Source: an uncultured Acidobacteriota bacterium
Lineage (GTDB): Bacteria > Acidobacteriota > Thermoanaerobaculia > UBA5066 > DATFVB01
Assembly (NCBI GenBank): GCA_963813155.1
Contig: CAWEYG010000002.1
Span: 1-64,000, forward strand
Length of the DNA: 64,000 nucleotides
Direction of reading: 5' to 3'
The stretch's first letter is position 1, and every line of letters starts with the position of its first letter. The position numbers and the translations under genes were made by a program. The notes under the pieces were generated by a model. The model was not told the origin of the DNA. It searched no databases and saw only the letters and a list, made by a program, of their open reading frames with translations. Below are positions 14,195 through 17,956 of the stretch, one piece after another.

Positions 14195-15900
14195 GTGATC
14201 GCCGCGCTTACGTTCCTGGCTGCAACCACGGCGCTCGCGCCGATCCGCGACGGTTATCTCGATCTCTACTTCCGGACCTTTCCCACCGCCGCCGTGCAGG
14301 CGGGGCGCCACGACCACGACCGCGAGCTGGAGCACCTGACTCCCGACGTCTTTCGCCGCTGGCTCGCGGCGAACCGGGAAATCCGCACGCGGCTGTCTCC
14401 CTGGCTCGGCCCGGCCGCGAACCGGTGGCTCGCTGGACGACCGGCTCGACGCCGAGGCGCTGGCCCGGCAGATCGACCGCGAAATTCACGATCTCGAGGT
14501 TCGAAGAGCGGCCCTGGAGGGATCCGCTGTACTGGACCGAGATCCTCGGGAACGCCGACGTGTTTCTCCTGGTTCGCGACGATCGCCCCGAGCCGGAACG
14601 GATCGCGGCGGTCCGGGAACGCACGCTCCGGGTTCCGAGGCTCGCGGCCGACGCCGAGGCCGCGATGTCGCGCACCCCGAAAACCGACATCGCGCCGGAG
14701 CTGTGCCGGATTGCCGCGGAGCAGGCCCGCGCGGGCGCGGCGTTCTTTCGGGACGGCCTTCCGAAATTCGCGCCGCGGGACTCCGGCCTGCGCCGCGCGG
14801 CTCTCGAGGCGGCGCCGGCGCTCGATCGCCTCGCGCGATTCTTCGACCGGTTGACGCGCGAGGCCACCGGATCTCCCCGGCTCGGACGCGAGTATGCCGA
14901 GACGTTTCGCCTGTCGACGGGGTGGACGGAGAGCCCCGACCAGGTTCTCGCGGAAGCGGAGCGGGAGCTCTCCGCGAAACGGGACGAGGCCGCGAGTTTC
15001 GGGCGATCGGCGTGGAACGGGATCTTTCCCGGCGAGGCCGCGCCGGCGAGCGACGTCGACGTGCTCCGCCGCCTGTTTTCCCGGGTGGCGGAGGACCGCG
15101 CGAGGAGCACCGAAGAGCTCGTCGGCGACTATCGCGACCTCGTGACGCGCCTCGACGCGTTCCTCCGGGAGAAAGACGTGATCACTCTTCCCGAGCCGCT
15201 GACGCTCTGGAGCGGGCCTTCGCCCGGATTTTTCGTCGGGCAGAGCGTCGGCGGAATCTATGCGGCCGGGCCCTACTCACCCGGAGCGAAAACGCTCTGG
15301 TTCCTGCCGACGCCTCCCGATTCCGCGAGCGCCGCGGAGAAGGACGCGTTCTTCCGCGATTTCAACCGCCACTTCGGCGTGATGATCACGCCGCACGAGA
15401 CGCTTCCGGGCCATTACGTCCAGCTGAAATACGCGGCGCGCTCGCCCCACAGGGTCCGGGCGCTTTTCGCCGACGGCGTCTTCGTCGAGGGGTGGGGAAC
15501 GTTTTGCGAGAGGCTGATGCTCGATCAGGGATGGGGAGGCCCGCTCGACAGAATCGCCCATTTGAAAAAACAGATGGAGAACATCGCCCGCACCGTCGCC
15601 GACATCCGCGTCCATACCCGGGGCATGACGCGGGAGGAGCTCGTCCGCTTCGCCCGGGAAGACGCCCTTCAGGACGACCAGTTCGCGGGAAACATGTGGA
15701 CGCGTTCGATCACGAGCGCGCCGCAGCTCACGTTCTATTCTCTCGGCTACCGGGAAGTCCGGGGGCTCTTCGACGAAGTCCGCGCGGCCCGCGGTCCCGC
15801 GTTCCGGCTCAAGGAATTCATGGATGGGATGATGGCGCTGGGTCCGGTGCCGATCCGGCACTACCGGGCCCTCTTTGGTCTGGAGGACGAATCGCGATGA
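14195..15900 (+). CDS. DUF885 family putative metallopeptidase, frameshift near 14430-14470
   Basis: Signal peptide in the 5' frame; HETLPGHYVQ, FVEGWG and PQLTFYSLG in the 3' frame. Confidence 0.8.
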
Positions 15901-16834
15901 GCGGCTGGCCGTCCACCGGATAGCCGGCTTCGACCCACGCGTCGAATCCGCCCGCGAGAGGCCGCACCCGAACGAATCCTTTGTCCATCAGAAGGCGCGC
16001 CACACGGGCGGCCGATGCTTCGTTGGGTCAGGTGCAGTAGAGAACGATCTCCCGGTTCATCGGAAGGGCGGCGACCTCCTGGTCGAGATCCTCGAGCACG
16101 ATCCGCAACGCCCCGGGGACATGGCGCGGGTCCCGAAGGAACGAAGCCTGGCTCCGAGCATCGACGATCACGGGATCGCGCCCCTCGTCGATGAGCCGGC
16201 GGACCTCGTCGACCGAAATCCTGGCCATTCGGAGGAAATGGTAGAACCGGCGCCGCTGCCACCACTTCCAGGCGACGAAAAGGACGAGCGCCGCTCCGGC
16301 GGCGATCAGCGCCCAGAAGCCCATCCCCTCGAGAAATTCCGCGACCCGGTCGATCGCGCGGTGAAACAGGTGGCCCGCGAGAAGGCCCGAGCCGGCCCAC
16401 AGCAGGGCTCCGCCGCCGTCGTAGAGGAGAAAAGGGAGAAATCCCGCTCCCACGGCTCCCGCCAGAGGCGGCGCCACGGTCGAGAAGCCGGGAACGAATT
16501 TCGCGAAGAGCAGAGAGCGCAACCCGTGGCGCTCGAAGAGAGATTCGGTCTGGCGCACGCACGAGTCGGGAGAGAGCGAGACGCTGCAAACCGTCTTCAG
16601 AATCCGGTAGCCGTGTCTTCGGCCGAGGAGGAACCACACGGCGTCGGCGAGCAGAGAGGCGACGAGCGCGAGAAGGATCAGGATCGGGCCGGAGAGCTTC
16701 CCCTCGGCCGCGAGAGCGCCGGCCGCGACGAGCGTCGGAATGGCCGGGATCGGCAGTCCGATCTGTTCGAGGAAAACATTGGCGAAAACGAGCGGAAGCC
16801 CGTACCGCGCGACGTGGAGAAACAATTCGTGCAT
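15818..16834 (-). CDS. DedA/VTT membrane protein fused to a rhodanese domain; putative selenoprotein (UGA at 16028-16030)
   Basis: DedA motifs (EQIGLPIPA, AKFVPG). Reading through the TGA gives IVLYCT-U-PNEASAARVARLLMDKGF..VRPLAGGFDAW, a complete rhodanese domain in the same frame. Confidence 0.85.
15974..16018 (-). promoter_or_regulatory. Candidate bacterial SECIS hairpin
   Basis: After the UGA the mRNA reads CAUC-GGC-CGCC-[CGUGU]-GGCG-C-GCC-UUCU-GAUG. The G-containing apical loop begins about 21 nt after the UGA. Folded by eye only. Confidence 0.55.
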
Positions 16835-16859: not shown

Positions 16860-17030
16860 TCAGTCTTCTTCGGTCGGCTTCTCCGGGGGTCGGGGACGTT
16901 CTTTGGGAAAGTCGACATTTCCGCATTTCGGACAACGGAAATAGTCCTCCAGAATCGCTCGATCGGTCAGGTTGATGAGCGTCGTCTCCCCGCATTTCGA
17001 ACACTTCACCGCAATCCGTGGCTCGCTCAT
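16860..17030 (-). CDS. 56-aa zinc-ribbon microprotein (CSKCG...CPKCG)
   Basis: Absent from the ORF track. Sequence MSEPRIAVKCSKCGETTLINLTDRAILEDYFRCPKCGNVDFPKERPRPPEKPTEED, with a strong GGAGGTG SD just upstream of the ATG. Confidence 0.75.
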   Translation of the reverse strand: MSEPRIAVKCSKCGETTLINLTDRAILEDYFRCPKCGNVDFPKERPRPPEKPTEED

Positions 17031-17287: not shown

Positions 17288-17956
17288 TCACTCTTTTGCC
17301 GGTCTCAGATGCCGGGCGCGCGCCTCCGCGACTCCGAAAACGAGCGCGAGCCAGCCGAATCCCAGGGCCCACCCGCCGAGCACGTCGGTGGGCCAGTGCA
17401 CCCCCAGGGCGATCCTCGAAAGTCCGATGAGGGAGGTCGCGAAGAACCCGAGAAAGAGAGCGCGGGCCGCGCACCGCTTCGATCGGCACGAGGCGGCCGC
17501 CAGCCCGGCGACGGCGCCGTAGAACACGGCGGACAGCGTCGAATGGCCGCTCGGGAACGAGAAGCCGATCGCCCGTGTCAGCGGATCGAACAGGTCGGGG
17601 CGCGCGCGCCGAAAAACCTGCTTCAGGACCTGCACCCAGATTTCGGCCCCGACGACGGCCACCAGGAACGCCCTCAGCCTCTGCGGAGCGCCGATTCGCG
17701 CGAGATAGACGGCGACGGCCGCCGAGGCCACGGCGAGGAACGGGGGGCCTCCGAGGAACGAAATCGCCCGGAGCAATCCGATGCCGGCGGACTGGAACCC
17801 GGTGTGAAAGCGGGTTTCGACCGTCGTGTCCACCCGAATCGAAAGAGCGAGCCTTCCCTGGCCGCGCGCCACCAGGCAGAAGAGAAACGCGAGCACCGCA
17901 GCCGCGAGAAAGAGCGTTTCCGCGAGCCGCCAGCCGCGGGCGGAGGAACGTGCCAT
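17288..17956 (-). CDS. PAP2 family phosphatase (undecaprenyl-PP phosphatase-like)
   Basis: Motifs KQVFRRARP, FPSGHS and SRIALGVHWPTDV. Confidence 0.9.
   Translation of the reverse strand: MARSSARGWRLAETLFLAAAVLAFLFCLVARGQGRLALSIRVDTTVETRFHTGFQSAGIGLLRAISFLGGPPFLAVASAAVAVYLARIGAPQRLRAFLVAVVGAEIWVQVLKQVFRRARPDLFDPLTRAIGFSFPSGHSTLSAVFYGAVAGLAAASCRSKRCAARALFLGFFATSLIGLSRIALGVHWPTDVLGGWALGFGWLALVFGVAEARARHLRPAKE

Follow-up and report, generated by a model that had tools for sequence, protein, structure and literature searches.

In the available text of two selenoproteome reviews, rhodaneses with a Cys-x-selenocysteine (CxU) motif are catalogued as 'COG0607 form 2' (PMC9312934, 2022) and as 'form 3, NF041203' (PMC13188914, 2026), and in neither text do the words 'DedA' and 'VTT' occur. 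A gene of this type is described here from a 64,000-nucleotide stretch of DNA of an uncultured Acidobacteriota bacterium (GenBank assembly GCA_963813155.1, contig CAWEYG010000002.1, positions 1 to 64,000), hereafter called the window, in which a minus-strand reading frame joins a DedA membrane domain to a rhodanese domain that is interrupted by an in-frame TGA. On comparative grounds, this apparent stop inside a membrane-protein gene almost certainly encodes selenocysteine (Sec). We put at roughly 0.93 the probability that a single gene specifies a 338-residue inner-membrane selenoprotein, built from a DedA domain, a linker helix, and a C-x-U rhodanese domain, with UGA codon 269 decoded as Sec by SelA, SelB, tRNA-Sec, and SelD under the direction of a hairpin. 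The protein is a new domain architecture of an already known Cys-x-Sec rhodanese type. No DedA-fused Sec rhodanese was found in the literature searched, which comprised titles and abstracts, and the supplementary tables of selenoproteome surveys could list such a form.

Comparison with described systems

The best NCBIfam match of the window protein is NF041203 ('rhodanese_LYCAU'), with which it shares the domain, the position of Cys-x-Sec in the active loop, and the LYCxU motif (here LYCTU). The score of 83.1 bits, obtained with C written for U in the query, lies below the cut-off of 115, and whereas the model describes a stand-alone protein of about 126 residues (126 model positions), the domain here makes up the C-terminal third of a membrane protein with 338 residues, which also carries the DedA domain and a C-x8-C stretch. 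Stand-alone rhodanese selenoproteins were found in three relatives (YCTU[KP]NE..SSARVAQ; 111.3 and 107.5 bits on NF041203), and these share with the fused form the hairpin AGC GCC CGT GTG GCG at the same spacing. Because YCTU and hairpin are common to both, the fused domain and its putative selenocysteine insertion sequence (SECIS) are homologous to those of the known Sec-rhodanese family.

TsoB (NF045694), named in the available text of PMC13188914 as a rhodanese/DsbD fusion-like selenoprotein, likewise joins a rhodanese to a cysteine-bearing membrane domain and is, by analogy, a precedent for a membrane-coupled Sec rhodanese. It differs in its DsbD-like membrane domain and its UxxxxU motif with two Sec residues, and the window protein scores 19.4 bits on its model against a cut-off of 805. 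The same architecture as in the window is found in Cys-form orthologues, annotated as 'DedA family protein/thiosulfate sulfurtransferase GlpE' or, under their Joint Genome Institute name, 'membrane protein DedA with SNARE-associated domain/rhodanese-related sulfurtransferase'. These proteins, e.g. P0113 of Thermithiobacillus tepidarius DSM 3134, are 54-61% identical to the window protein and share with it the YCTCPNEASAARVAR motif and the C-x8-C stretch, but have TGC or TGT where the window has UGA, and those sampled in the phylum mostly lack the hairpin.

The VTT/DedA domain is also shared with the UptA undecaprenyl-phosphate transporter models NF052604 and NF052605, on which the window protein scores 27.1 against 250 and 24.6 against 300, respectively; on the DedA equivalog NF008102 it scores 51.8 against 236. 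Unlike the window protein, UptA and the DedA protein of Ralstonia metallidurans have no rhodanese domain. YgaP of E. coli consists of an N-terminal rhodanese domain followed by two C-terminal helices and is not known to contain a DedA domain or Sec. It is a single rhodanese tethered to the inner membrane, the fold of which (PDB 5hbo/5hbl) matches the rhodanese domain of our structural model at Foldseek rank 39.

Reading frame and coordinates

The minus-strand open reading frame (ORF) at 16834..16028 has 268 codons, ends in ...EIVLYCT, and is closed by the TGA at 16030-16028, exactly where the original prediction, an earlier reading of the DNA letters, had placed the end of a 268-residue DedA ORF stopping after IVLYCT. 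Past this TGA the same frame runs on as PNEASAARVARLLMDKGFVRVRPLAGGFDAW... / PNEASAARVARLLMDKGFVRVRPLAGGFDAWVEAGYPVDGQPLIAIRPP... until a second TGA at 15820-15818, and orthologues of full length carry an in-frame TGA at the same place. The claim that the continued frame completes a rhodanese domain was also borne out, as the PF00581 match spans the TGA. The features discussed below are collected in Table 1.

Table 1. Coordinates of the predicted DedA-rhodanese selenoprotein gene and its parts in the window
Feature	Position	Strand	Remarks
Whole DedA-rhodanese gene (predicted selenoprotein)	15818..16834	-	338 residues; ATG 16834-16832, Sec codon 269, final stop TGA 15820-15818
DedA/VTT membrane domain	16376..16747	-	residues 30-153; PF09335 46.3 bits vs cut-off 33.9; helical membrane part to about residue 203
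Cys83-x8-Cys92 stretch, CSVSLSPDSC, in DedA domain	16559..16588	-	specific to the rhodanese-fused subfamily
Rhodanese domain	15929..16216	-	residues 207-302; PF00581 54.8 bits vs 22.2; interrupted by TGA for standard gene callers
Cys267 (TGC), canonical rhodanese catalytic Cys	16034..16036	-	aligned with C of YCGGGFRS in PDB 6mxv
UGA, read as predicted Sec269, motif C-T-U	16028..16030	-	same column TGA 61, TGC/TGT 28, other codon 3 in 92 loci
Hairpin, conserved upper part	15994..16013	-	stem GGCCGCC / GGCG(C)GCC with one bulged C; pentaloop CGUGU 16006-16002, 21 nt past UGA
Full hairpin with outer CAUC/GAUG stem	15986..16017	-	present in the window; outer stem poorly conserved

In many orthologues a short PLIAIRP motif stands directly after the rhodanese domain. 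The C-terminal tail of the protein (15818-15900) is non-conserved and modelled with low confidence, and overlaps by 83 nt the 3' end of a convergent DUF885 gene (14425-15900, + strand).

Alternation of UGA with cysteine codons

The original prediction had proposed that homologues be compared for alternation between Cys and TGA at this codon. When the read-through protein was searched against 60 relatives from the order of the window, all 49 matches with E <= 1.5e-86 had at least one in-frame TGA each, and in the 20 loci fetched from this search TGA stood without exception in the same column (LYCT-U-PNEA). A phylum-wide sample yielded matches at E <= 1e-40 in 71 of 401 genomes, some with one TGA and others with none. 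The combined set of 92 loci, which includes that of the window and all listed phylum-wide places except two pieces of a split copy in one genome (G014), showed the expected alternation, with TGA in 61 loci, TGC in 25, TGT in 3, and CGC, TCG, and TCC in 1 each; the TGA loci extend down to about 34% identity. The Cys forms read YCTCP[SN]E, in agreement with the YCxCPNE that had been named for them beforehand.

A quick maximum likelihood tree of 91 rows (one row cut by a contig end was dropped, and the Sec column was excluded) shows Sec and Cys forms interleaved, which takes no fewer than 3-4 changes of state; the tree is unrooted, and a direction of change between Sec and Cys is accordingly not claimed. 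The codons after the TGA are, to judge from their pattern of substitution, under purifying selection. In comparison with the closest orthologue (L023), 16 synonymous and 3 non-synonymous differences were counted over 42 aligned codons downstream of the TGA, and 102 synonymous and 35 non-synonymous differences upstream of it; when the differences of 59 Sec forms are pooled, the synonymous fraction is 0.42 downstream and 0.34 upstream. Because the TGA alternates with Cys and is followed by codons under purifying selection, neither a pseudogene nor a sequencing error can explain the locus. Two of the 61 TGA loci, L023 in G002 and L048 in G008, are from genomes flagged as unpublished; L023 was used for the synonymous/non-synonymous comparison, as one of five syntenic loci, and as one row of the alignment for structural modelling. 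Without both, TGA is found in 59 of 90 loci and the conclusions are unchanged.

The three loci with another codon (L094, L095, and L096, paralogues in G344, G226, and G363) keep C83 and C267, but their residue 269 is Arg or Ser. On the tree they group together in a single clade with good support, and they may be a subfamily that can do without a second chalcogen. One rhodanese match recorded with 1 TGA (G000:C3:970623-970979) proved to be an ordinary rhodanese, the TGA being its own stop codon.

Support for the TGA was also found in other assemblies, as had been proposed at the outset, because soil-metagenome contigs retain it. One contig (X1, which may be from the source sample of the window itself) covers 15600-16325 and another (X2) covers 15800-16038, both with 0 differences, and a third (X3) spans the entire stretch with 50 differences; among those listed, none is at 16028-16030. 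With the same codon as TGA in 61 loci of different genomes and in independent soil-metagenome contigs, sequencing error as the source of the TGA was excluded. Contigs of other organisms, from two soil runs, match the window only at 15974-16048, a piece of 75 nt with 7 differences that holds the Sec codon and the hairpin; the restriction of the match to this piece points to its strong conservation at the nucleotide level.

A conserved hairpin downstream of the UGA

The hairpin of the original prediction is present in the window as drawn, from CAUC (16017-16014) and GGCCGCC (16013-16007) through the loop CGUGU (16006-16002) to GGCGCGCC (16001-15994) and GAUG (15989-15986). Its upper stem is conserved in Sec forms and mostly missing from Cys forms, but the outer CAUC/GAUG stem is not conserved: only 54% of its cells are paired across 60 sequences, with pair 15-44 formed in 17 of the 60, and it was dropped as part of the conserved element.

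These comparisons were made on 63-nt alignments starting from the TGA, one of 60 Sec forms (A1) and one of 31 Cys/other forms (A2). Pairs 22-32, 23-31, and 24-30 are formed in all 60 Sec forms and pair 21-33 in 52, and the pentaloop at nt 25-29 has the consensus C-G-K-G-Y, 21 nt after the UGA, in each of the 60 analysed. Of the 31 Cys/other forms, 12 have pair 24-30 and 13 have pair 21-33. More distant Sec forms lengthen the stem to six perfect pairs (AGCGCC/GGCGCU), and in the group of the window the stem resumes beyond a one-base bulge. In this group, C at base 21 is paired with G at base 33 in 6 of 6 sequences, and G at base 21 tolerates any base at 33. The minimum free energy fold has exactly this pentaloop in 40 of the 60 Sec forms versus 2 of the 31 Cys/other forms, and the mean hairpin energy is -12.5 kcal/mol in the former and -6.6 kcal/mol in the latter.

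Constraint at synonymous sites is in our judgement the most telling result for the putative hairpin. Among 106 conserved codon columns across the gene, synonymous variation is zero only at A276 (GCC in 59 of 59) and V278 (GTG in 52 of 52), the third bases of which make up the loop-closing pair 24-30, and the intervening R277 is encoded by CGT (41) or CGG (18) only. As in SECIS elements generally, the stem-loop stands shortly 3' of the UGA and has a G near the start of its apical loop. The spacing rule of bSECISearch is 16-37 nt.

Selenocysteine machinery and other selenoproteins of the genome

The genome, which is 90.8% complete, was searched for selA, selB, selC, and selD as the original prediction had suggested, and all were found. 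The gene for tRNA-Sec scores 71.3 bits (cut-off 47) and was given the anticodon tca by ARAGORN; selB scores 351 bits (cut-off 242), selA, which lies on the same contig as the window, 456 bits (cut-off 268), and selD, which has an in-frame TGA of its own, 332 bits (cut-off 125). The 338-residue selenoprotein proposed beforehand is strongly supported by codon alternation, hairpin, and Sec machinery taken together.

The SelD protein (G000:C3:921620-922561, - strand, locus L018) is itself a selenoprotein, with the site GSAG-U-ACKLG and a hairpin loop AGUUC 16 nt past the UGA. A formate dehydrogenase of the FdnG type (G000:C19:7331-10401, - strand, L117-L119) has the canonical Sec site RV-U-HGPTVA, and 18 nt past its UGA lies the loop AGUUU of a strong SECIS hairpin; the family match of this gene is in pieces across frames and part of the N-terminal translation appears out of frame, which suggests frameshifts or assembly errors in its contig. 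All three hairpins, those of SelD, the FdnG-like protein, and DedA-rhodanese, consist of a G+C-rich stem and a pentaloop N-G-U-N-N, at UGA-to-loop spacings of 16, 18, and 21 nt (CGUGU in the last), respectively.

Protein architecture and conserved cysteines

Conservation was examined in 89 sequences, in which C83 and C267 are invariant and C92 and C/U269 are conserved at 90% or more. The only other DedA paralogue of the genome has a 7-residue gap where the C83-x8-C92 stretch stands, which makes this stretch a hallmark of the subfamily fused to a rhodanese. An alignment to 6mxv obtained with phmmer puts Sec269 two residues past the catalytic-loop Cys267, within the active loop Cys267-Thr-Sec269-Pro-Asn-Glu; as C267 matches the catalytic-loop Cys, Sec269 is not the canonical catalytic residue.

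An AlphaFold2 model built on the 89-row alignment has a mean predicted local distance difference test score (pLDDT) of 91.3, falling to 60-70 in the last ~30 residues, and a predicted template modelling score (pTM) of 0.76. In this model, residues 2-171 form an all-helical membrane part and residues 173-203 a long helix, and the rhodanese domain is of the alpha/beta type. Foldseek searches of the model against the PDB returned rhodanese domains only (Alr3790, 6mxv, GlpE, and YgaP), with no solved DedA structure among the matches. With GRRHGYRILK ahead of C83 and KWWQRRRF behind the final membrane helix, the positive-inside rule would place both the C-x8-C stretch and the rhodanese domain in the cytoplasm.

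Proposed mechanism and alternative explanations

For the biochemical role of the protein, including a coupling of DedA transport to sulfur or selenium transfer, we infer the following sequence of steps. The short G+C-rich hairpin within the coding sequence would direct insertion of Sec at UGA 269, and the resulting Cys267/Sec269 pair could form a reversible selenenylsulfide or act as a carrier of a sulfane sulfur or selenium atom. This atom, or reducing equivalents, would then pass between that pair and the C-x8-C stretch on the cytoplasmic side of the DedA domain. In this way the substrate of the membrane domain, whether a small species of sulfur or selenium or a compound that reacts with thiols, might be covalently captured or released. 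When selenium is scarce, translation would terminate at the UGA and give the 268-residue product that is listed in databases.

Several observations weigh against parts of this account. The hairpin of the window taken alone is no stabler than shuffled sequences (z = -0.12, with 79 of 200 shuffles folding as well), and the case for it therefore rests on comparison and not on energy. In the Cys/other forms 65.6% of cells are still paired, versus 76.7% in the Sec forms, a residue of pairing that arises because Ala codons are self-complementary and that calls for caution with raw pair counts; kin are moreover not independent, so that shuffle counts and rank-test p-values are overstated. The Rfam search of 15700-16300, with E up to 10, gave no SECIS family match and only a chance microRNA match. 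As to function, no conserved neighbour or operon partner of the DedA-rhodanese gene was found among the loci compared, and C-T-U-P-N-E is without the basic residues typical of thiosulfate-binding rhodanese loops. The unremarkable energy of the single hairpin would suit a TGA that is a true stop in a pseudogene or split gene, leaving a 268-residue DedA protein that ends in a non-functional piece of rhodanese, with an untranslated remnant downstream, and this is in effect how the locus appears in the output of gene callers and in public databases (268 residues, 'VTT domain-containing protein' or 'membrane protein DedA'). It is nonetheless a highly improbable explanation, given that TGA occupies the same column in 61 loci down to ~34% identity and is replaced by Cys in 28 homologues, that constraint on the 42 codons downstream is no weaker than on the upstream part, that these codons complete a rhodanese fold for which the structural model is highly confident, and that the genome has the Sec machinery. 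Full-length translation alone would account for the downstream conservation if the UGA were read through without Sec, be it by a suppressor tRNA, by a near-cognate tRNA for Trp or Cys, or under a deviant code, and Cys is functional at position 269 in homologues. To this route we give very little credence: the gene itself ends in TGA, so that TGA is not a sense codon throughout, the FdnG-like gene has its in-frame TGA at the canonical Sec site RVUHGPTVA, the Sec pathway is complete, and the hairpin is specific to TGA forms, stands at SECIS-like spacing, and matches those of SelD and FdnG.

In a genuine selenoprotein the rhodanese domain could also sense redox state or selenium and thereby control the DedA domain, and not act as the carrier in a catalytic relay. 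The loop C-T-U-P-N-E is acidic, unlike the basic loops that bind thiosulfate, no conserved sulfur-metabolism partner lies nearby in the loci compared, and the three paralogues with Arg or Ser for Sec/Cys269 keep C83 and C267, all of which would be in keeping with a sensor. Against this, Sec is usually found at catalytic redox sites, according to the available text of PMC13188914 and PMC9312934; the joint conservation of C83, C92, C267, and U/C269 in the 89 sequences fits relay and sensor equally. The sensor is regarded as a less likely but serious alternative, and a Sec-containing rhodanese that acts as a relay with the cysteines of the DedA domain is the role that we favour.

Gene neighbourhood

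The gene is flanked by genes for DUF885, a 56-residue zinc-ribbon protein, and a PAP2 phosphatase, an arrangement that recurs only in 5 loci of the family of the window. From 17 loci, 183 flanking ORFs were generated; L028 and L036 were left out of the Pfam scan, which covered 148 ORFs of 15 diverse loci and found unrelated neighbours (KDO/SIS, PAS-GAF, methyltransferase, Pyr_redox + Rieske, Pirin, P-type ATPase, Usp, redoxin, PALP, and others). All-against-all clustering of the flanking ORFs was swamped by shadow frames of the high-G+C DNA.

The zinc-ribbon ORF (16860-17030, - strand) has 56 codons with two CxxC pairs and weak Pfam zinc-ribbon matches; it ends 25 nt upstream of the start of the selenoprotein gene and may be co-transcribed with it. 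Further upstream on the same strand lies the gene for the PAP2-superfamily phosphatase (17288-17956, - strand; 78.4 bits). DedA proteins of the UptA type recycle undecaprenyl phosphate, and PAP2 enzymes dephosphorylate undecaprenyl pyrophosphate; the pairing of PAP2 with DedA, conserved only within the family of the window, is suggestive.

Annotation and significance

As the original prediction had anticipated, gene callers split the gene. Among the 120 best database matches, close relatives (62-93% identity) appear as truncations of 268-270 residues under the names 'VTT domain-containing protein [Thermoanaerobaculia bacterium]' or 'membrane protein DedA...', and the Cys forms in public databases have 311-342 residues. 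The gene is therefore systematically mis-annotated, a widespread protein being shortened by gene callers. The read-through form is present in many soil Acidobacteriota genomes, with TGA in 61 of the 92 loci, and its correction adds a membrane protein to bacterial selenoproteomes.

Work on selenite and DedA is said to have originated with Ledgham et al. in 2005. In the available text of PMC11422209, a DedA mutant is linked to selenite transport and DedA is tied to selenite uptake in Ralstonia metallidurans, and the selenite work is credited there to a 2023 paper on Xanthomonas XdfA. In a bolder extension of the relay, the DedA-rhodanese protein would be a device dedicated to taking up and capturing a species of selenium or sulfane sulfur. 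Selenite, thiosulfate, or polysulfide, for example, would be moved across the membrane by the DedA domain, and the cytoplasmic C-x8-C stretch and the C-x-U loop would immediately trap the species as a covalent selenotrisulfide or persulfide for delivery to acceptors such as SelD. We consider this quite doubtful; if true, the device would be a specific prokaryotic selenium transport system, of which none has been identified so far according to the available text of a 2026 review (PMC13188914).

For the uncharacterised DedA-rhodanese family, the finding provides a clue, in that the residue two positions after the catalytic Cys is important enough for Sec to be used there, and Sec269 is found together with a Cys pair of the membrane domain that is peculiar to this subfamily. 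The links between DedA and selenite, together with the lack of a known specific prokaryotic selenium transporter, make the family a testable candidate for membrane-coupled trafficking of sulfur or selenium, and Cys-form orthologues in cultivable bacteria such as Thermithiobacillus tepidarius make genetics feasible.

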